Part shown: positions 3,216-24,433 of the stretch, piece after piece
Layout: each line of letters starts with the position of its first letter
Position numbering within the stretch: position 1 is the first letter of the stretch
NCBI RefSeq assembly: GCF_055900595.2
Contig: NZ_CM148325.1
Direction: 5' to 3' (one strand)
Length of the DNA: 64,000 bases
Translations under genes and position numbers: made by a program
The notes under the pieces: model-generated
The model's input: only the letters and a program-made list of their open reading frames with translations
Databases searched by the model: none
Told to the model about the DNA's origin: nothing

Positions 3216-5478
3216 CCTGGATCTCCTTCGACAGTTCGACAAAGAAGGCGCTGTATCCGGCTACGCGCACCACCAGCCCGGCATAATCTTGTGGGCGCTG
3301 TTGCGCTTCCCGCAACGTGTCGGCGTTCACCACGTTAAACTGAATGTGTTGTAATTTAAGCTGGGTAAATGCCCGTAAGAAGTCGGCTAGTTTGCGTAAT
3401 CCCGCTTCACCTTCCAGGGTCGCCGGAGTGAATTTCACGTTCAGCAATGTACCGTTAGAAAGCAGCGTGTTATCGAGCTTGCTGACTGATTTCAGTACCG
3501 CCGTTGGTCCTTGTGCATCCTGGCCCAGCATGGGAGACAAACCACCGTCTGCCAGTTGTTCCCCGGCAAAACGGCCGTCTGGCGTCGCACCAACCACCGC
3601 TCCCAACGGGACATGAGCAGAAACGGTATACGATCCTGGCGTGAAGTAGCCACCGCGCGGGTTCTGGTATTTTTCCACTTCTTTGCAGTAATGACGCAGG
3701 AGTTCAGCGCTAATGTTATCCACCTCGTCGATATCGTTACCGTATTTCTCAAAGCGGTTAATTAAGCGAGCGCGGACTTTTTCGCCTTCTGGCGTTGCGA
3801 AGTTGGCTTTTAATACCGACAGCAATTCGTCAAAACTTAAACGCTGTTGCTCAAAAACCATCCCTTTCAACGCATGGAGAGAATCGCTCAGGTTGGCGAT
3901 ACCGATCCCCTGTACGCCGGAGAAGTTATAACGCGCGCCGCCATCGGTAATATCGCGGCCTTTTTCCAGACAATCGCTGATAAACGATGAGAGCAGCGGT
4001 ACAGGAGCCCAGTCACGATGGCCGATATCACAAATATTGCTGCCTTCAACCATCAGGGTGATGTAGTGGCTGATCTTGACGCGGATCTGTTCCAGCAAAC
4101 CTTCATAACTCAGCGCAGCATTACCTTCATTTTCATGCAGGCAGATTTCCATCACTTTCAGCAGGTTAAACATCGCGATGTCATGCAGACCGTAGGTTCT
4201 GCCGGGAATAGATAATTCCACGCACCCCACTACGGAATAGTCGCGCGCATCTTCCAGCGAAACGCCACGGTTGAGGAACGCTGGCACCACCACTTCATCG
4301 TTGAAGATTTGCGGAATACCCGTGCCGAGGCGGATGGTTTCTGCGGTTTTCATCAGGAACGGCGTGTCGATCAAGGCGTTAGTGCGCACGCCGAGGTTCG
4401 GTTGCGGCAATTGCACGCTTTGATAAGCGTCAAGGCAAAGGAACGAAAGCACGTTCACCGCGCTACGTCCGTTCTCGGTTAAACCGCCGAGCAGTGCGGT
4501 ATAGCCGGTCGGGAAACCTGCGAAATAACGCGCACTGCGGGTGGAGCGTAAAAGCACGATGTCATTGCATTTCACCCATAAAGATTCGAGCAGTTCTTTC
4601 AGGAACGCCGGATCTTCGCCCTGGGTTAATGATGCCTGATAGAATGGCAACATATACTGGTCGAAGCGCCCTAAAGACAGCGAGCTGGCGTTGGATTCGT
4701 ATTGCAGAATGATGTTCATGTACCAGAACAACTGGCACGCCTGCCAGAATGTCTGTGGCTTATGTTCGGCGTTATGGCGGGAGATCTCCGCCATAGTCAG
4801 CAGTTCTTCGCGACGCTGGGCATCAGTGCAGTTTGCCGCCATCGTTTCCGCCAGTTCGGCGTAACGCAAAATGTGTTTCTGCGAGGCTTCGAGCAATAAC
4901 AGCGCAGCCTGATAAAAGTGATTCTCCGGCTGTTGCTGGCAATGTTGCTGCATCTGCGCCACCAGCTCACCCAGCCCGTGATTCAGCAGGCGCGGGTAAT
5001 CAATAATGATGTGCCCCTGGCCTTTATCTGTCTGGTTGATACTGAAAATCTGCGTGCTGGTCGCGGCTTTTACTTCATCCGTCATCTGCCCGTTAATAAA
5101 ATCTTTCATCGAGCGTTTTTCCCAGTATGGGAACAGCTCTTCGCGGTAGATACGTTTATCTTCTTCACTAATGGCGAAGCGGTCCTGCGGTCGCGTCGGA
5201 AATTGATCCAGCTCTTTCAGCAGCCAGTAAGGGTCCATTTCCGGCGACATAATCCCGGCGCGCGGTTTTACGGTACGGTTACCAGCAATCAGTTCTTCAT
5301 CACGAATCGAAATTTCAACATGTTCAAGGATATACGCTGTTGCTTTCGCCCGGCGCAATATCACTGGTTCGCCTTCGGTTTGCCGATGGCTGGCGGTATA
5401 AAGCAGCGCCCGCTCCAGCGAGATTTCACGGGTATTAGCAAACAGTGCAGTTTTAAGGCGAGAGATACGATTCGTCAT
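3181..5478 (-). CDS. pflD: Formate acetyltransferase 2 (glycyl radical enzyme, PFL-like)
   Basis: 765-aa ORF with the C-terminal glycyl-radical motif (…VRVAGYSAFF…). Confidence 0.9.
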   Translation of the reverse strand: MTNRISRLKTALFANTREISLERALLYTASHRQTEGEPVILRRAKATAYILEHVEISIRDEELIAGNRTVKPRAGIMSPEMDPYWLLKELDQFPTRPQDRFAISEEDKRIYREELFPYWEKRSMKDFINGQMTDEVKAATSTQIFSINQTDKGQGHIIIDYPRLLNHGLGELVAQMQQHCQQQPENHFYQAALLLLEASQKHILRYAELAETMAANCTDAQRREELLTMAEISRHNAEHKPQTFWQACQLFWYMNIILQYESNASSLSLGRFDQYMLPFYQASLTQGEDPAFLKELLESLWVKCNDIVLLRSTRSARYFAGFPTGYTALLGGLTENGRSAVNVLSFLCLDAYQSVQLPQPNLGVRTNALIDTPFLMKTAETIRLGTGIPQIFNDEVVVPAFLNRGVSLEDARDYSVVGCVELSIPGRTYGLHDIAMFNLLKVMEICLHENEGNAALSYEGLLEQIRVKISHYITLMVEGSNICDIGHRDWAPVPLLSSFISDCLEKGRDITDGGARYNFSGVQGIGIANLSDSLHALKGMVFEQQRLSFDELLSVLKANFATPEGEKVRARLINRFEKYGNDIDEVDNISAELLRHYCKEVEKYQNPRGGYFTPGSYTVSAHVPLGAVVGATPDGRFAGEQLADGGLSPMLGQDAQGPTAVLKSVSKLDNTLLSNGTLLNVKFTPATLEGEAGLRKLADFLRAFTQLKLQHIQFNVVNADTLREAQQRPQDYAGLVVRVAGYSAFFVELSKEIQDDIIRRTAHQL

Positions 5479-5528
5479 GAGGAACTCCTGTGGGAAAGCG
5501 AACCCGCCCTTACGGGCGGGATAAGAAC

Positions 5529-5849
5529 TTAAGCGGTTTGCGCCAGGTGAGCTTCAATTTTGCTCATAATGGCATCAGCACGTTTTACCGCGTCGCTGAT
5601 GTTGACGCGCACAATGGTCTTGCCAGCAAAACGCTCTTCAAACTTGATGCCGATATCTTTGGTCAGAATCACCATATCGGCGCTCGCCACGTCTTCCGCA
5701 GTCAGTTCATTTTCCAGACCAATCGAGCCCTGGGTTTCTACTTTCACTTCCCAGCCTTTCGCTTTCGCGGCACTTTCCAGCGCCTCTGCCGCCATATAAG
5801 TATGGGCAACACCAGATGGACACGCGGTTACTGCAATAATTTTCGTCAT
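5529..5849 (-). CDS. frwB: PTS fructose-like IIB component FrwB
   Basis: MTKIIAVTACPSGVAHTYMAAE…, paralog of FrwD. Confidence 0.85.
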   Translation of the reverse strand: MTKIIAVTACPSGVAHTYMAAEALESAAKAKGWEVKVETQGSIGLENELTAEDVASADMVILTKDIGIKFEERFAGKTIVRVNISDAVKRADAIMSKIEAHLAQTA

Positions 5850-15964: not shown

Positions 15965-16858
<894 letters not shown>

Positions 16859-16904
16859 TTACCTCATCAATCGCTTGTAGTTATATGTTGTGTTGTGCAC
16901 ATCT

Positions 16905-16940
16905 ATCCGTTTAGACGTCCAGATGTAAAGATGAAGGAAA
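16905..16940 (-). promoter_or_regulatory. metF promoter with tandem MetJ operator repeats (met boxes)
   Basis: agacgtcc agatgtaa agatgaag tandem 8-bp repeats matching the AGACGTCT met-box consensus, 50-80 bp upstream of metF. Confidence 0.6.
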
Positions 16941-17150
16941 AGCTGAAGGGCGTCAACCGAAAAATGACCAATGATGGTGAGGAAAAATCAGGGAAGATGA
17001 AAAAAACTCATCTTAATTAGAGGTAATAAAGAGATTTCTTTATAGCGCAATCAACCTCACTCGTTTTGACTGATATACAGGCAACACAACGGCACCTGTT
17101 CTCATTCGAAAAACAACGCCCTGCCACCAGATGGTGATGCTAAAGCATCT

Positions 17151-17181
17151 GATTCGGCCTGCGCTCTCGTGTAGGCCGAAT
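17151..17181. terminator. Stem-loop downstream of island nucleotidase paralog 1; possible terminator near the left island boundary
   Basis: attcggcct…aggccgaat inverted repeat. Confidence 0.3.
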
Positions 17182-17237
17182 ACAGAATCTGCGAAATCAA
17201 CTGGTAACAAACAGTAGAGTCAACTCAGTGCGTACTT

Positions 17238-18797
17238 TTATTTAATATCTTTCACGCGCATACCGTTGATCTGTTCATCCGTGATGGTGTTACCCGCTTT
17301 AAAGTAATCAACCACCGCGTGATAAACGTAATAACCGCCCGTCGTATTGCGCGCTTTACCCTCGGTAAACGCGGTAAAACCATCTCCACCATCAGCAAGG
17401 AAACTCTGAGTAGCAATGTGGTAAACCGTCGCATCTTCAATCGGTTTGCCATTCAGCGTCAGCGAGATAACCCGCTGACCAACCGGCTTGCTGCTGTCGT
17501 ACTTCATTTCCAGGCCTTTCGATACCTGTAAAACGCCATTACTTAAACTTGCGCCGTGTTCCATCAAACCGCGTAATTGTTTACCCGTGAGTTCCATCGT
17601 CACCAGTTCGTTGGGGAACGGGAAGGTACTGATGACGCCACCCATCGTAATTGCACCCGCCGGGATCTCATTGCGAATCCCACCAGAGTTGGTTAACGCC
17701 AACTGGGTATTTTTACCCGCCGCTACCAGTAAAGCGTCCGCCGCCAGGTTCCCCAGGGATGCCGATTCACCATAGGCACGTTTTAATTCAACTGGCGATT
17801 GCGCCACCGTTTGCTGCACGACTTCATCCAGCTTTTTATTCCAACTATCAATCACCTGTTTTGTTTGCGCATCGGGCTTCCACTCGTCGGCGTAAAGGGT
17901 TTTAAGCTCGAAGTTTTTCACCGTAAAAGTGTGCGGTTTCTCTTTGTAGTCGAGAACCAGTTTACCCACATCAATCCCACCGCTGTCAGTGGAGAGGATG
18001 AGCGTATTGCCGACTTTAATCGGTTCCGGCGTACCCACATGTGCATGCCCGGTGATCAAAATATCCAGCCCTTTCACCTGACTTGCCGTCTGAATATCTT
18101 TATCCAGTGCGCGGCGCACATCTGTGCCCCCCATACTGGACTGGCGGGCCGGAACACCTTCGTGAATCAGCGCAACGGTCAAATCAACCTTGCCTTTGAG
18201 TTCATCGATATAACGTTGTAGCCATTTAATTTCATCACGCGCCTCAATACCCACTCGCGTTGCCGCAGATACCGTATCATTAAAGGCAAATACACCGTGC
18301 AAACCTATAACACCAATTTTCACGCCGTCTTTTTCAATAATGGTATATGGCTTATCCCAGAATGATTTACTGCTGTTCTGATAAAAAACATTACCCTGCA
18401 CAATCGGGAATTGTGCCTGACTCAACTGTAATAACGTATTGTCCCAGCCGTGATCAAATTCATGATTACCTATAGTGGCCGCATCGAACGGCATGGTATT
18501 CATAATATCGATAATCGCCTTGCCTTTAGTCAGGCTGCTGATATACGGCCCGGTAAAATAGTCACCCGCATCAAAAAACCAGGTCGCTTTGTTTTTAGCT
18601 TTTTCTTGTTTAACAAGCGTAGTGATATTTGCCCAGCCGCCAATATCCCGTTTACCCTCAGCAATCCACGGCACTTTATAGGGCTCTACATGTGCGTGGA
18701 GGTCATTGGTATAAATAATGGTGACATCTTTGGCGCAGGCCCAAAACGGCAGTGTTAATGCGATACCCGCAGCAAGCATTTTAATTTTCATAAACAA
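17238..18797 (-). CDS. Island paralog 1: secreted 5'-nucleotidase/UDP-sugar hydrolase-like metallophosphoesterase (UshA family)
   Basis: N-terminal signal peptide; metallophosphatase motifs DLHAH, DAGDYF, GNHEFD, HEG, GHAH; C-terminal 5'-nucleotidase-like domain; no K-12 counterpart at this locus. Confidence 0.8.
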
Positions 18798-18850
18798 TCC
18801 CTTCCAGTGAGATAAAGGATTGCTACATTACGTTCTGAAAGGCTTTTTTA

Positions 18851-18866
18851 TGTGAGAATACTCACA
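18851..18866. promoter_or_regulatory. Perfect CRP-binding palindrome in the divergent intergenic region between island paralog 1 and the Zn-ribbon gene
   Basis: tgtga-gaatac-tcaca equals the TGTGA-N6-TCACA CRP consensus, with an A/T-rich flank. Confidence 0.55.
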
Positions 18867-18923
18867 TCCAGAGGCAATAACTGTAGGACAAAATCGACGA
18901 CCTTATGAAATCGTTGGTGATAT

Positions 18924-20051
18924 ATGTCAAATCTGTTTGCGATTAATGTCTGTAAAACGTTCGGTTGTCGAAATTTGGGATTGGCCTCATCGGAAGATTA
19001 CAGTTGGCCAGACTATAAACTGGGTTTTCCGGCACTGCACTGCCAGGCATGCGGAAGTTACCCCCCTTTGTTTGATGAACAACAATTTCGTGACTGGTTG
19101 TCAGTTCACATGACTGCGTGTGCCATAGAAACAGGGCATTTTTGTCCATCATGCTATTGTAAAGAAAAGATTTTTTATGGCCACAACCCGCATGGAACAC
19201 AACGCGTTCAATGCCGTTCATGCAAAAAAGTCTGGACTCCGAAACAGCAGCCAGCAAGAGAAATTACGTATCCCCAGTCCATTGAAACCGTTCAACTGTT
19301 CATGCCCTTTCAAGGAGCCAGCGCACTACAAAAGCTCTATGTTTTAGTCAGTCTTGACGCCACTCGTGGCAACATCCTTCATCTCTCCACGAATTATACG
19401 CAACATCAGACAGGAGACAGTCTGCGGTACAGTTACAGAGGCAATACAGAACCAACTGAGCACCATAGCGATATTGTGCAGAGGGTAGATATGCGTGAAG
19501 CGCAATTCTTGCGCCGGAGCCAGTTCGATGAAATTCAGTATGGCAGTGCTGTGCTCAAGCGCAATGGCAAGGGAGCCATACTACGCCCGGTTATCACGGC
19601 TCACGGGCATTTCAGAATACTGAAAATCCGCTTTCCACATGTCAAAACGCATATCATTTCACACGAATGTTTTCTGAGAGGCGCAATTATTACAGCCTGG
19701 GCAGATCAGTTCCGCCAACAACAAGGCGAACTTTGGTTCGTAGAAGAAGAAATCAGCGACCGTAACGCTGATATTCCCTGGCATTTTCAGGGAACGACAT
19801 ACCATGGTTGGTGGCAAAATCAGTGGCAACGCTGGGGGCAGGGGAATAACAGCAAGATGGTCTGCCTGCTCACAGGAGTCTCCTTAGAAAGGGGCGCAAA
19901 TGTTTCTCTGGCAACCAGTCGTTGCTTTATCACATGGCTGACAGACCAACACGACTTTACCCAAAGCGCGTTATTATCCGCAGGTCGCGTAACGAAAATG
20001 CTGACCTCACTGGCGTTAAAATACAATGAATCGCTCACTCCATCTTGTTAG
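18924..20051 (+). CDS. Cys-rich Zn-ribbon protein resembling an IS1595/ISXO2-family transposase; catalytic integrity uncertain
   Basis: FCPSCYC…(12 aa)…RVQCRSCKKVW follows the CPxCG…RYxCKxCxKxF transposase Zn-ribbon pattern; a downstream stretch (THIISHECF…FVEEEISDRN) loosely resembles the end of a DDE domain. Confidence 0.55.
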   Translation: MSNLFAINVCKTFGCRNLGLASSEDYSWPDYKLGFPALHCQACGSYPPLFDEQQFRDWLSVHMTACAIETGHFCPSCYCKEKIFYGHNPHGTQRVQCRSCKKVWTPKQQPAREITYPQSIETVQLFMPFQGASALQKLYVLVSLDATRGNILHLSTNYTQHQTGDSLRYSYRGNTEPTEHHSDIVQRVDMREAQFLRRSQFDEIQYGSAVLKRNGKGAILRPVITAHGHFRILKIRFPHVKTHIISHECFLRGAIITAWADQFRQQQGELWFVEEEISDRNADIPWHFQGTTYHGWWQNQWQRWGQGNNSKMVCLLTGVSLERGANVSLATSRCFITWLTDQHDFTQSALLSAGRVTKMLTSLALKYNESLTPSC

Positions 20052-20169
20052 TCAATACACTCGACAAACGACCATAAATTAATGGGATCACTATTTCTCA
20101 TTTAATTAAATATATGAATGTATGACTGAAAAATATAATCACAGTCAATGTTTAATTAATAACATTATT

Positions 20170-20185
20170 TGTTACTAAGATCACA
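20170..20185. promoter_or_regulatory. CRP-like site (one mismatch) in the AT-rich promoter region upstream of island paralog 2
   Basis: tgtta-ctaaga-tcaca, about 95 bp upstream of the ATG at 20281. Confidence 0.3.
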
Positions 20186-20280
20186 TAATACTTTCCTGAC
20201 CTATGCTTACATAAAAATAAGACACGGAGTTCCTTTTATTTAAATAATTCAACCAATGTAACAACCCCTATCAAGGAGGG

Positions 20281-21834
20281 ATGATGAGAACTGTATTTAC
20301 GACTTTATCAGTCATATTCAGCGTGATGTTTTCTCACAGTATACTAGCTCAGGACGTTACTATTTATTATACGAATGATATTCACGCACATGTCAATCCG
20401 GCAAAAATTCCCGCTGTTGATAAGAACAGACTTGTAGGTGGTATGGCTAATATTGCAGGCATCGTTAATGAAGCGAAGAAAAAAAACAAAGATGTCTTTT
20501 TCTTTGATGCAGGCGACTATTTTACCGGTCCGTATATCAGTACCCTGACCAAAGGTGAAGCTATTATTGATATCATGAACACCATGCCCTTTGATGCGGT
20601 GTCCGTTGGTAATCACGAGTTCGATCACGGCGTGCCCAATATGGTATCTCAGTTATCAAAAGCAAAATTCCCCATTCTGCTGGGAAATATTTACTACACC
20701 GATACAAATAAACCAGTTTGGGATCATCCGTGGACTATTATCGAAAAAGATGGTTTAAAGATTGGTGTGATTGGATTGCATGGTGCATTCGCTTTCTATG
20801 ATACAGTCGCGGCAAAAGCACGTGAAGGCGTAGAAGCCAGAGACGAAATTAAATATTTAAATAAAGCACTTGCAGAATTAAAAGGTAAAGTCGACATTAC
20901 CGTTTTGCTAATTCACGAAGGTGTTCCGGCGCGTCAATCAAGCTTTGGTAGTAAAGATGTGGAGCGGCTACTACAGGCAGATATTGAGACAGCTAAAAAA
21001 GTGAATGGTGTTGATGTCTTAATTACCGGTCACGCACATGTCGGAACACCGCAACCAATAAAAGTTAATAACACATTAATTGTATCTACCGATGCATACG
21101 GCACCGACATCGGAAAACTTGTGCTTGATTACAATCCGAAAACGAAGAAAATTGATAGTTATAATGGTGAGTTAATCACCATCTTCGCAGATCAATTTAA
21201 ACCTGACACCATCGTTCAAAATACTATCGATAAATGGAGTGCAAAGCTTAACAAAATAACACAGGAAGTTGTCGGCCATTCTCCCGTAGTTTTAACACGT
21301 GAGTATGGCAGTTCTTCTTCTACCGGTAACCTTATTCTTGATGCAATGATGGAAAAAACACCAGATGCCATTGCCGGATTTCAAAATAGCGGTGGGATGC
21401 GAGCTGATTTTCCTAAAGGTGATATCACGCTGGGAGATGTTATTAGCACATTCCCCTTTAATAATGACCTCATCGAGATGGATTTGACGGGCCGCGATCT
21501 CAAATCGTTGATGACGCATGCAACCAATCTAACTAACGGTGTGTTACAGGTTTCAAAAAGCGTTGCGGTTGTCTATGACAGCAAAAAACCACTGAACCAA
21601 CGGTTAATCTCTTTCACCATTAACGGCAAACCCGTGGAAGATAATCAAACATATCGTATTGTCACGCACTCCTTTTGTGCCAGTGGTGGTGACGGTTTTG
21701 AAGCATTTTTGAATGGAAAAAATGTGAAGACGATACCGGGAACAACCTCGGCGGAATCTATCATCGATTATTTCAAAAATCATAAACCTGTCACCCCAGA
21801 CTTAACTAAACGAGTAATGGACGTCGCCAAATAA
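20281..21834 (+). CDS. Island paralog 2: secreted UshA-family 5'-nucleotidase-like metallophosphoesterase
   Basis: Signal peptide; DIHAH, DAGDYF, GNHEFD, GHAH motifs; AT-rich codon usage. Confidence 0.8.
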   Translation: MMRTVFTTLSVIFSVMFSHSILAQDVTIYYTNDIHAHVNPAKIPAVDKNRLVGGMANIAGIVNEAKKKNKDVFFFDAGDYFTGPYISTLTKGEAIIDIMNTMPFDAVSVGNHEFDHGVPNMVSQLSKAKFPILLGNIYYTDTNKPVWDHPWTIIEKDGLKIGVIGLHGAFAFYDTVAAKAREGVEARDEIKYLNKALAELKGKVDITVLLIHEGVPARQSSFGSKDVERLLQADIETAKKVNGVDVLITGHAHVGTPQPIKVNNTLIVSTDAYGTDIGKLVLDYNPKTKKIDSYNGELITIFADQFKPDTIVQNTIDKWSAKLNKITQEVVGHSPVVLTREYGSSSSTGNLILDAMMEKTPDAIAGFQNSGGMRADFPKGDITLGDVISTFPFNNDLIEMDLTGRDLKSLMTHATNLTNGVLQVSKSVAVVYDSKKPLNQRLISFTINGKPVEDNQTYRIVTHSFCASGGDGFEAFLNGKNVKTIPGTTSAESIIDYFKNHKPVTPDLTKRVMDVAK

Positions 21835-21868
21835 AATATCATTTATCAGTCTATTTATTTAACAAGGA

Positions 21869-23494
21869 ATGCGAATGAAAACAGTGCAGCGTACTTTACT
21901 TGCCGCAACATTGCTGACTATTTTTTCGGTCTCAGCCATGGCGCAGGATGTCACGATTATTTATACCAATGATCTTCACGCTCATGTGGATTCTTATAAA
22001 GTGCCGTATATCGCAGACGGAAAACGCGACATTGGCGGCTTTGCCAATATATCTACTTTAGTAAAACAAGAGAAAGCGAAAAATAAAGCCACCTTTTATT
22101 TTGATGCTGGAGACTATTTCACCGGCCCTTATATCAGCAGTCTGACAAAGGGCGAAGCAATAATTGACATTATGAATACCATGCCTTTTGACGCAGTATC
22201 AATCGGTAATCATGAGTTTGACCATGGCTGGGATAATGCCCTGCGACAATTAAGCAAAGCGAATTTTCCTGTTTTATTGGGCAATGTTTATCATAAAGAG
22301 AGTGAGAAACCCTTCTGGAACAAGCCCTACACCATCCTGGAAAAAGATGGCATCAAGATTGGTATTATTGGGCTACACGGCGTATTTGCATTTAATGATA
22401 CGGTCTCGGAGCTCTCTCTCCAGGGACTCGATAATGACAATAATAACCGCTTTGATAAATCTTCCGAGACCCTTAAGAATCAGGGGATTGAAGCACGTGA
22501 TGAAGTGAAGTATTTGCAGCATTATATCGACGAGTTACGTGATAAGGTTGACCTCACTGTGGCGCTGGTTCATGAAGGCGTTCCGGCGCGTCAGTCCAGC
22601 ATTGGCAATACAGATGTTAGACGCGCTCTTGATAAAGATATTCAAACCGCTAGCAAGGTGAAAGGATTGGATATTCTGATTACCGGGCATGCCCACGTCG
22701 GAACGCCAGAGCCAATCAAAGTCGGCAACACCTTAATCCTTTCAACTGATAGTGGCGGTATCGATATTGGTAAATTAGTCCTTGATGTCAACCCTACAGC
22801 TCGTACCCATAAAATGAAGAGCTTTGAGCTGAAAACAGTTTATGCCGATGAATGGATACCCGATCCAACGACACAAAAAGTTATCAATGGCTGGAATAAA
22901 AAACTGGCGGATATTGTACGCCAACCAGTGGGTGAATCATCGATTGCATTAACTCGCGCCTATGGTGAGTCATCGCAACTAGGCAACCTGTTTACCGATG
23001 CAATGCTTGTCGCTGCTCCGACTGCACAGATTGCATTGATAAACTCCGGCAGCTTACGTGCGGATATAAATGCAGGCACGATTACCTTTGGCGACATTAC
23101 CAGTACATTCCCCTTCAAGAATGAACTTACTGAAATGGATCTCAGCGGTAAGGATCTGCGTAACCTACTGGAACACGGGGCATCGCTTACCAATGGCATC
23201 CTGCAAATGTCAAAAGGCGCAGAAATGCGCTATACCCCGCAGAAACCAGTAGGTCAGCGCATAGTATCTTTTAAAATTAATGGTGAAGAGATCGTTGATA
23301 CGAATATTTACCATGTTGCAACAACGACTTTCCTTGCACTGGGGGGCGATGGTTTTCTGGCATTCAAAGAAGGGAAAAATGTTCAGGTCCGCGCCGGAAA
23401 TAACATGTCCGATGTCGTGATCGATTATTTGAAGAAAGGCCACAAGATTACGCCTGCACAGGTAAATGAAATGCGGGTGGACGTTAGCAAATAA
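21869..23494 (+). CDS. Island paralog 3: secreted UshA-family 5'-nucleotidase-like metallophosphoesterase with a ~24-aa Asn/Asp-rich insertion
   Basis: Signal peptide; same motif set; closest by eye to paralog 1 but with an extra ELSLQGLDNDNNNRFDKSSETLKN segment. Confidence 0.8.
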   Translation: MRMKTVQRTLLAATLLTIFSVSAMAQDVTIIYTNDLHAHVDSYKVPYIADGKRDIGGFANISTLVKQEKAKNKATFYFDAGDYFTGPYISSLTKGEAIIDIMNTMPFDAVSIGNHEFDHGWDNALRQLSKANFPVLLGNVYHKESEKPFWNKPYTILEKDGIKIGIIGLHGVFAFNDTVSELSLQGLDNDNNNRFDKSSETLKNQGIEARDEVKYLQHYIDELRDKVDLTVALVHEGVPARQSSIGNTDVRRALDKDIQTASKVKGLDILITGHAHVGTPEPIKVGNTLILSTDSGGIDIGKLVLDVNPTARTHKMKSFELKTVYADEWIPDPTTQKVINGWNKKLADIVRQPVGESSIALTRAYGESSQLGNLFTDAMLVAAPTAQIALINSGSLRADINAGTITFGDITSTFPFKNELTEMDLSGKDLRNLLEHGASLTNGILQMSKGAEMRYTPQKPVGQRIVSFKINGEEIVDTNIYHVATTTFLALGGDGFLAFKEGKNVQVRAGNNMSDVVIDYLKKGHKITPAQVNEMRVDVSK

Positions 23495-23506
23495 TAAAAA
23501 AATTAT

Positions 23507-23541
23507 AATGCCATTCATTCACTGAATGGCATTATTTTTCT
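23507..23541 (+). terminator. Rho-independent terminator or attenuator between paralog 3 and the Tsx-like gene
   Basis: aatgccattcattcactgaatggcatt hairpin followed by atttttc. Confidence 0.55.
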
Positions 23542-23572
23542 CTAAATCAACAATAAATAATGAGATATATTT

Positions 23573-24433
23573 ATGTGTATAAAAAAGCACGGGATAGCTT
23601 TATCGATTCTATTAATACCTTGCATTGGAAACGCTCAGGAAATTAAAAGTGAGGAAGGCTGGTTACATCAAAGCTTGAATGTCATTGGTCGCACAGACTC
23701 TCGCTTTGGCCCAAGGCTGACTAACGACCTCTACCCTGAATATACTGTAGCAGGAAGAAAAGACTGGTTTGATTTTTATGGTTATGTTGATCTACCAAAA
23801 TTCTTTGGCGTCGGCAGTCACTATGATGTTGGGATCTGGGATGAGGGCTCACCACTATTTACGGAAATAGAACCTCGGTTTTCCATTGACAAATTGACCG
23901 GATTAAATCTTGCGTTCGGCCCTTTTAAAGAATGGTTCATTGCAAACAACTATGTCTATGATATGGGTGACAACCAGTCATCCCGGCAAAGTACATGGTA
24001 TATGGGGCTTGGTACAGATATCGACACGGGTCTACCAATTAAGCTTTCTGCCAATATATACGCCAAGTATCAGTGGCAAAACTATGGTGCCGCTAATGAA
24101 AATGAATGGGACGGATATCGATTCAAAATAAAATATAGCATTCCTCTTACCCATTTATTCGGAGGGCGATTGGTATACAATAGTTTTACTAACTTTGATT
24201 TTGGCTCCGATCTTGCGGACAAATCACACAATAATAAACGAACCAGTAATGCTATTGCTTCAAGCCATATCCTTTCCCTGCTATATGAACACTGGAAATT
24301 TGCATTTACACTACGTTATTTTCACAACGGTGGACAATGGAATGCTGGGGAGAAAGTTAACTTCGGAGATGGTCCATTTGAATTAAAAAACACAGGATGG
24401 GGAACCTATACTACTATTGGTTATCAATTTTAA
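23573..24433 (+). CDS. Tsx-like outer-membrane nucleoside-specific channel (Tsx/OmpK family paralog)
   Basis: Signal peptide; long collinear similarity to E. coli Tsx (…KDWFDFYGY…[17 protein letters not shown]…[16 protein letters not shown]…[26 protein letters not shown]…); C-terminal aromatic residue. Confidence 0.8.

Follow-up and report, generated by a model that had tools for sequence, protein, structure and literature searches.

The metF-metL locus

We analysed a 64 kb stretch of DNA (contig NZ_CM148325.1 of NCBI RefSeq assembly GCF_055900595.2; "the window", in whose positions all coordinates are given), which is a region of the Escherichia coli chromosome that is 99.5-100% identical to several complete genomes. 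Our subject is an open reading frame (ORF) at 18924..20051 in the metF-metL interval, with a divergent 5'-nucleotidase gene on one side and two nucleotidase paralogs and a Tsx-like channel gene on the other; its RefSeq product name is "hypothetical protein" (WP_000067197.1). A preliminary description of this DNA had called the gene IS1595/ISXO2-like and had offered three options for it, namely a degenerate insertion sequence (IS), a transposase domesticated into a regulator, or the vehicle by which the island was brought in or rearranged. We propose that the ORF product is an IS1-like protein, domesticated and catalytically dead, which regulates the adjacent nucleotide-scavenging genes, probably together with CRP, a reading to which we give a probability of roughly 0.55. 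The gene is present and intact at the place where it had been claimed, and the locus is made up as follows.

17238..18797, minus strand: 5'-nucleotidase paralog 1, with a signal peptide, hence periplasmic; paired divergently with the ORF throughout, also in Citrobacter and Klebsiella
18851..18866, no strand: perfect CRP core palindrome TGTGAgaatacTCACA in the 126-bp divergent intergenic region 18798-18923, about 60-70 bp from both starts
18924..20051, plus strand: the ORF, intact, with an ATG start, 375 amino acids (aa), stop included; a cytoplasmic protein of an uncharacterised IS1-derived family
20170..20217, no strand: two CRP-like boxes upstream of paralog 2, at 20170-20185 (TGTTACTAAGATCACA) and 20202-20217, the second being one half of a 14/16 inverted pair with 18845-18860
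20281-21834, plus strand: 5'-nucleotidase paralog 2, in the long variant of the locus only
21869-23494, plus strand: 5'-nucleotidase paralog 3, in the long variant only
23573..24433, plus strand: Tsx-like nucleoside channel gene, 286 aa, intact in the window; in the long variant only

Domain architecture of the ORF product

The protein can be divided into five parts, all encoded on the plus strand.

18945..19055, residues 8-44: N-terminal four-Cys module (NxCK-x3-C ... CxxCG), family-specific, with C10, C15, C40 and C43 conserved at 92-94% (n=53)
19143..19223, residues 74-100: second four-Cys module (C74/C77/C97/C100), a zinc ribbon of the InsA/IS1 transposase type according to sub-threshold NCBIfam and Pfam matches over residues 74-115 and to family-level hhalign
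19224..19277, residues 101-118: short linker at the site of a helix-turn-helix (HTH) in most relatives; a gap in the alignment, with no helix at 98-118 in the model
19278..19697, residues 119-258: RNase H-like core, in the order b1-b2-b3-a1-b4-a2-b5-a3 (b, strand; a, helix), without the DDE triad
19728..20036, residues 269-371: family-specific C-terminal extension, predicted to form a four-stranded sheet with GWWxxxW and a helical bundle that ends in a conserved YN

The cysteine motifs noticed earlier lie where they had been placed (C40/C43 in HCQACGS, C74/C77 in FCPSCYC and C97/C100 in RVQCRSCKKVW), and a further pair, C10/C15, which had been overlooked, completes the first module together with C40/C43. 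Across the 53 family members used for conservation and for one-by-one Pfam tests (the query and 52 relatives), all eight cysteines of both modules are 79-100% conserved. The N-terminal module had no match among transposase models. The C-terminal extension, in which W296, W297, W301 and N368 are 87-98% conserved, had no Pfam or PDB sequence match in searches with the query and the family, and a PDB sequence search with the family profile returned only compositional matches to C2H2 zinc fingers and no relative of this domain. Searches of the ORF product with Pfam, NCBIfam, PHROGs and PADLOC gave sub-threshold zinc-ribbon matches only and no match to a defence system. The family is unnamed, and the C-terminal two-thirds of the protein is without a Pfam model.

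Relationship to IS1 transposases

The cysteine pattern had at first been matched to the zinc ribbon of IS1595-family transposases, and the C-terminal part had been thought to resemble an ISXO2-like DDE domain. We listed Pfam matches to an E-value of 10 for the query and of 0.1 for its relatives. Zn_ribbon_IS1595 (PF12760) did not match the E. coli protein and was found in 0 of 53 members at E<=1e-3 (four at E<=0.1), and DDE_Tnp_IS1595 (PF12762) and every other DDE Pfam family were absent among the listed matches for the query and the 52 relatives. With no significant match to either model, the IS1595/ISXO2-like label is left without support, and the DDE resemblance is not confirmed, although the fold of that region is nonetheless of the RNase H-like transposase/integrase kind. 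What survives is the type of the second module, which is of the IS1/IS1595 kind at the level of the family, the E. coli protein itself falling below every threshold.

The models that do respond point to IS1. Nothing in Pfam was significant for the ORF product, the best match being to Zn_ribbon_InsA (independent E-value 0.14, residues 74-101); within the family, this model (PF03811) reached E<=1e-3 in 7 of 53 members, with a best value of 1.4e-7. The E. coli protein scored 15.3 bits against the NCBIfam model IS1_IS1595_Zn (NF050000, cut-off 28) and 19.6 bits, over residues 74-115 only, against the IS1 equivalog NF033558 (cut-off 100). Two relatives, P0158 and P0140, exceed the NF050000 cut-off, and P0140 and P0164 match the NCBIfam IS1 model over positions 1-130/140 with E-values of about 4e-7 to 8e-7; the maximum for NF033558 among the relatives tested was 30.3 bits against the cut-off of 100, so a whole-protein match was not obtained. 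The family profile aligned with IS1 InsAB', a comparison sequence reconstructed from IS1A of K-12, over the InsA zinc ribbon and HTH (hhalign probability 96.6%, E 5.8e-10), and the alignment of a non-enterobacterial subset with IS1 (94.4%) extended to IS1 residue 133, into the catalytic domain. The general CxxC...CxxC type of N-terminal ribbon is common to IS1595 (ISXO2-like) elements as well, and NCBIfam puts IS1 and IS1595 in the single domain model NF050000, but IS1 models consistently outscore IS1595 models for this family. On these profile comparisons, the nearest transposase family is IS1.

The likeness to IS1 consists of the zinc ribbon homologous to that of InsA/InsAB', the HTH found in most members of the family, and an RNase H-like core that follows the DNA-binding part. 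The differences are considerable: the score of 19.6 bits lies far below the family cut-off of 100, and neither of the first two DDE positions holds an acidic residue; the ORF is one uninterrupted frame of 375 aa, whereas IS1 has insA and insB joined by a -1 frameshift; a four-Cys module is added at the N-terminus and some 110 residues at the C-terminus, and the E. coli clade has no HTH; and the ORF is a single-copy, syntenic gene under purifying selection without terminal repeats or a target duplication.

An exhaustive phmmer search recovered only 122 representative clusters, many of 400-520 aa at 20-35% identity. Relatives with a named source belong to the Enterobacterales and Vibrionales (Klebsiella, Atlantibacter, Proteus, Vibrio, Photobacterium and Enterovibrio), and the AFDB50 matches were unannotated family members only. 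Database names for members are inconsistent, ranging from "cytoplasmic protein" and "IS1 family transposase" to "InsA N-terminal zinc ribbon domain-containing protein" and "lactate dehydrogenase". In AFDB50, Vibrio sinensis holds two members of different subfamilies (509 and 485 aa), and Salmonella and E. coli hold a second "cytoplasmic protein" paralog that is about 22% identical; because these genomes carry second members, the family has diversified within genomes.

Fold and former catalytic site

In structure comparison, the predicted core of the ORF product matched RNase H-like transposase and integrase folds, with values of 8.5 for the ISCth4 transposase (6xg8), 8.2 for an integrase chain of the TnsABCD transpososome, up to 7.9 for retroviral integrases, 7.4 for Mos1 and 7.2 for Tn5. 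PIWI, EndoV and UvrC, all of the same superfamily, came next in the list. The predicted model has the b1-b2-b3-a1-b4-a2-b5-a3 core, which superposes on known RNase H-like members, at a sequence identity of 6-14% to the ISCth4, TnsB, HIV/PFV integrase, Mos1 and Tn5 cores. Unlike these DDE cores, the family lacks a conserved acidic triad and carries an extra sheet and helical bundle after the core.

A model of the Vibrio mimicus homolog (mean predicted local distance difference test score, pLDDT, 91.4) has the same core plus three helices between the ribbon and the core, at 108-123, 128-135 and 139-161, and these modelled helices are the InsA-like HTH. According to the alignment and the models, a three-helix HTH of about 45-55 residues is present in most relatives and is deleted in the clade of E. 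coli, Klebsiella and Citrobacter.

The DDE positions were mapped by secondary-structure order and a hand alignment to IS1, and their placement is thus inferred rather than read from superposed coordinates.

First D, on b1: T122/Q124, with the family consensus T..S; T122 is 77% conserved
Second D, after b4: R221-P222-V223; P222 is 94% conserved
E, at the start of the helix after b5: E248, retained

In the 53 sequences, C97, C100, R198 and H229 are invariant, and the only column with at least 90% D/E is position 248 (100% D/E). The first two catalytic acidic positions therefore appear to be replaced and the DDE triad lost, as judged from the aligned sequences. T122, P222, H229, H247, E248 and R252, all around the former active site, are among the most conserved residues, and because this surrounding stays so highly conserved, the site suggests a pocket that may have been put to a new use rather than one in decay. 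Homology to InsA, an RNase H-like fold and a missing DDE triad together make descent from a transposase, and hence the term "domesticated", well supported.

Distribution, synteny and selection

The ORF was found in 1841 of 5426 complete E. coli genomes (34%), in exactly one copy each, and the divergent 5'-nucleotidase paralog 1 in 1843; given these nearly equal counts, the two genes are gained and lost together. In the three contexts examined, the locus always lies between metF and metL. The long variant reads nucleotidase, ORF, two nucleotidases and Tsx, and the short variant consists of the nucleotidase and the ORF only, the 3' end of the ORF overlapping the end of metL. The short form occupies the same metF/metL position in Citrobacter and in Klebsiella pneumoniae, whose exact protein has index entries in 3946 blocks of an assembly collection. 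Because the position is the same in Citrobacter and Klebsiella, we read this as an ancestral enterobacterial locus that was lost in K-12-like E. coli rather than as an insertion, which would be the simplest history for these sequences. The ORF is a vertically inherited chromosomal gene of the Enterobacteriaceae.

Two of the options in the preliminary description treated the gene as an IS. One is an element of the IS1 or IS1595 kind that has lost mobility and is decaying neutrally within the island. The sub-threshold zinc-ribbon matches would fit this, as would the name "IS1 family transposase" that some database records give to relatives, but pairwise dN/dS between alleles is 0.11-0.24 at dS of up to about 1.6, which indicates purifying selection. 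The ORF is moreover intact in all five loci that were translated and annotated as an ordinary coding sequence in every sampled record of E. coli as well as in Citrobacter and Klebsiella, and the family is kept at 20-30% identity across two orders with its motifs conserved. The other option is an active IS as the means by which the nucleotidase/Tsx island was brought in or rearranged. The presence of the locus in only 34% of E. coli genomes and a G+C content below that of the flanks speak for such an element, whereas the gene never occurs in more than one copy, always sits at the metF/metL position in the contexts examined, shares that position with Citrobacter and Klebsiella (which implies ancestral presence and later loss) and lacks the DDE triad.

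The flanks of the ORF bear on both options. The preliminary description had found no convincing terminal inverted repeats and no target duplications. An imperfect 16-nt inverted pair does surround the ORF, at 18845-18860 and 20202-20217, with 14 of 16 positions matching, and it is beyond chance (0 of 300 mononucleotide shuffles). We considered and rejected this pair as IS ends. When the upstream regions are aligned in gene orientation, it proves to be a CRP-box/A-run element that belongs to the promoters of paralogs 1 and 2, which are oppositely oriented; no direct repeat flanks it, and the short variant, in which the ORF abuts metL, lacks the right copy. Terminal repeats of about 23 bp with an 8-11-bp duplication, as in IS1, were not found around the ORF either. 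Single copy number, co-occurrence with the nucleotidase, metF/metL synteny and purifying selection contradict both options; we regard neutral decay as very improbable and an active element as more improbable still, and we are highly confident that the gene is domesticated and not an IS.

Several further observations concern the alleles. Of the 1841 copies, two come from records with a plasmid label. The E. coli alleles fall into three deeply diverged groups, with 97 genomes at 99% identity or more to the window, 561 at about 91% and 1175 at about 76% (window 18924-20051 compared with E. coli loci L002 9001-10131 and L003 7001-8125). In the adjacent nucleotidase only about 7-8% of nucleotides differ (97% aa identity), and the divergence jumps within the ORF from about 19100 onward. 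Such a pattern points to allelic lineages of great age or to recombination with other species. Against the 91% allele, identity dips locally to 71-85% at 19100-19300 (residues ~60-125), a stretch that comprises the helix following the first zinc module, the second zinc ribbon, and the linker at the site of the deleted HTH. At positions 4759-5727 of a locus (L041) from K. pneumoniae GCA_034084815.1, the place of the 5'-nucleotidase in other K. pneumoniae, no gene is called, an IS (DDE_Tnp_1) lies inside the interval and the zinc-ribbon ORF is intact, and this locus may be a natural knockout of the partner nucleotidase.

Genomic neighbourhoods of relatives

We looked up the neighbourhoods of ten relatives from different subfamilies, at about 20-30% identity, with about 25-30% for those of Vibrio, Photobacterium and Proteus.

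Vibrio taketomensis P0140: divergent 5'-nucleotidase
Proteus P0146: divergent 5'-nucleotidase
V. mimicus P0161: 5'-nucleotidase immediately upstream
P0170: 5'-nucleotidase immediately upstream
P0148: divergent tal-add-deoC-deoA-deoB and a cut PNP/UDP-family gene, with a Bmp nucleoside ABC transporter nearby
P0143: divergent nupC and PNP/UDP
Photobacterium P0225: PNP upstream
Vibrio brasiliensis P0237: nupC-add upstream
Atlantibacter P0158: follows Tsx, a sulfatase and a radical-SAM maturase
P0164: convergent with a radical-SAM maturase and a sulfatase

Genes for nucleotide or nucleoside scavenging adjoin the relative in eight of these ten contexts, in addition to the enterobacterial locus. A genome scan with an alignment of the Vibrionaceae subgroup, a census that covers this one clade, gave 18 Vibrionaceae loci, of which 16 have a nucleotidase homolog directly upstream on the same strand and one more has it split in two pieces. 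The partner products are exported nucleotidases with signal peptides, transporter or channel homologs, and catabolic enzymes of the deo/add/PNP type; because the partners span such different classes, a regulator is a better fit than a factor for a single enzyme. The gene accordingly has the features expected of a regulator, being immobile, under selection and in conserved association with a set of candidate targets.

The subfamily found beside sulfatase and anaerobic sulfatase-maturase genes has proteins of about 400-420 aa and occurs in Atlantibacter (L012 2519-7263) and on metagenomic contigs (L036 3807-7792). A Tsx-like channel is also present in the Atlantibacter locus.

Promoter region and CRP boxes

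The preliminary description had placed the ORF in divergent transcription from paralog 1 across a CRP site, and this arrangement was confirmed with a perfect predicted core (TGTGAgaatacTCACA), the only zero-mismatch match to the CRP core in the 64 kb. The core at 18851-18866 is kept in the short and long variants of E. coli and in Citrobacter. Of 17 Vibrionaceae species, 15 have a CRP-like box (TGTGA-N6-TCA[AC]A, with at most two mismatches) ~75-97 bp before the start of the 5'-nucleotidase gene, and a word related to AAAGCAAACG occurs upstream of the nucleotidase in about half of the loci. Scanning the DNA ahead of the Vibrionaceae nucleotidase genes for k-mers and CRP boxes gave no operator that could be assigned to the ORF family protein, and an Rfam scan of 16800-24700 found nothing.

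Just 5' of the ATG, at 18895-18916, there is an inverted repeat, CGACGA-N10-TCGTTG, which is perfect as CAACGA/TCGTTG in other E. coli and in Citrobacter, within a conserved block; it could be an operator or a hairpin of the 5' untranslated region. The two CRP-like boxes of paralog 2 are spaced by about 30-35 bp, like the tandem CRP sites that CytR-controlled promoters carry, and cytR itself lies about 10 kb away from them.

A proposed regulatory role and its alternative

The following scheme is consistent with these findings. An ancestral IS1-type transposase gave rise to a protein that keeps the InsA-type zinc ribbon and the RNase H-like core and that, with its acidic positions replaced, would no longer cut or join DNA by DDE chemistry. 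The N-terminal four-Cys module and the C-terminal sheet and helix extension were gained, and the HTH was lost in the enterobacterial clade. Most likely, the zinc modules bind DNA at the common CRP-dependent promoter region, as InsA does at the ends of IS1, and the protein, once bound, would govern expression of the neighbouring 5'-nucleotidase gene and, in loci of the long form, of the other nucleotidase and Tsx genes as well. The remodelled pocket (T122, R221-P222, H229, H247-E248 and R252) could sense a nucleoside or nucleotide. InsA alone is a repressor that binds the ends of IS1, so a regulatory use of this module has a precedent. The option of a domesticated transposase acting as a regulator thus holds in its first half, through the InsA homology, the RNase H-like fold and the DDE loss; regulation we infer from the gene neighbourhood, and binding to DNA, a ligand and joint action with CRP are likewise proposals. 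We regard the evolutionary reading as solid and offer the function as a testable hypothesis. A wider scenario, which we hold tentatively and at somewhat less than even odds, is that an ancestor of Enterobacterales and Vibrionales domesticated an IS1-type DDE transposase, which diversified into transcription factors responsive to nucleosides or nucleotides, with the dead site as ligand sensor and with paralogs recruited, alongside CRP, to 5'-nucleotidase, nupC, deo/add, PNP and Tsx operons.

The alternative that deserves most weight keeps the transposase origin and drops the regulation, the protein being either an enzyme or binder of nucleic acids or nucleotides that works through the remodelled pocket, or a cytoplasmic accessory or maturation factor for the adjacent exported hydrolases. 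Much of what tells against a regulator belongs here. R198, H229, H247, E248 and R252, invariant or nearly so around the old active site, are polar residues whose conservation is compatible with an enzyme as well. The HTH that IS1 InsA requires for DNA binding is missing from the E. coli clade, and sequence-specific DNA binding by the E. coli protein is less certain for that reason. In Vibrionaceae, the gene follows the nucleotidase immediately and in the same direction, which fits a co-transcribed regulator and an accessory factor equally well, and two of the sampled subfamilies adjoin a sulfatase and a radical-SAM maturase, after them in Atlantibacter and convergent with them at P0164, rather than nucleoside genes. 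The catalytic mapping, moreover, relies on secondary-structure order and alignment, not on superposition. On the other hand, a single accessory or enzymatic role is difficult to reconcile with partners that range from periplasmic nucleotidases to NupC in the inner membrane and deo, add and PNP enzymes in the cytoplasm; the most conserved part of the protein is the zinc ribbon homologous to the DNA-binding InsA; and a divergent layout with a common promoter region is typical of regulator-target pairs. We therefore consider a non-regulatory role unlikely, if far from negligible, and favour regulation of the neighbouring genes by the domesticated protein. Two points from the literature also weigh against this preference: searches on the family, its accession numbers and IS1 domestication found no paper or experiment on the family, and a study that treats the three nucleotidases and Tsx of this island does not list the 1.5-kb interval that holds the ORF (PMC12928451).

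Known systems and significance

The CytR/CRP nucleoside regulon (tsx, deo, udp, cdd and nupC/G) comprises genes similar to those beside the ORF family, namely a Tsx-like channel, nupC, deo and PNP/UDP-family phosphorylases, and here too CRP boxes lie at the promoters, but the ORF product is unrelated to the LacI-family protein CytR. To our knowledge, no bacterial DDE transposase turned metabolic regulator has been described, and we know of few well-documented cases of DDE transposase domestication in bacteria. The concept is the same as for the TnpB-derived TldR, a nuclease-dead transposon protein fixed beside the genes under its control (PMC10705468). The ancestor here, however, would be an IS1 DDE transposase and not the RuvC-type, RNA-guided TnpB; the Rfam scan mentioned above found no guide RNA; and regulation is in our case a proposal.

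The island has been described as "GR 31 metL..metF" in the avian pathogenic E. coli (APEC) strain BEN2908 and in other extraintestinal pathogenic (ExPEC) and adherent-invasive (AIEC) E. coli strains, and only the enzymes and the channel of the metF/metL locus have been discussed so far (PMC12928451). The ORF product is our candidate for the missing regulator of this nucleotide-scavenging locus, which is present in one third of E. coli genomes, many of them from extraintestinal pathogens. The family offers a clean and experimentally tractable case of domestication in E. coli, Klebsiella and Vibrio, and its recognition corrects the widespread mis-annotation of members as "IS1 family transposase", "lactate dehydrogenase" or "cytoplasmic protein".

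Such a regulator could also explain why related nucleotidases appear silent in the laboratory. The UshA-like VCA0545 of Vibrio cholerae, for example, has no verifiable phosphatase activity (PMC4714964), and a CRP peak in chromatin immunoprecipitation lies between VCA0544 and VCA0545 (PMC6050953). The published primers for VCA0545/VCA0546 deletion had no match in three family loci (L007, L014 and L016), so a link of VCA0545/VCA0546 to the family and its Vibrio subgroup is only a possibility.

Two minor features of the locus may be added. The Tsx-like gene, intact with 286 aa in the window and in strain SF-166, is annotated as a truncated pseudogene in E. coli CE10 (24874-25719 of locus L001). 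Between metF and the 3' end of paralog 1, an inverted repeat of 9 bp that is rich in G+C (ATTCGGCCT ... AGGCCGAAT, 17152-17181) resembles a terminator or a repetitive extragenic palindromic (REP)-like element.

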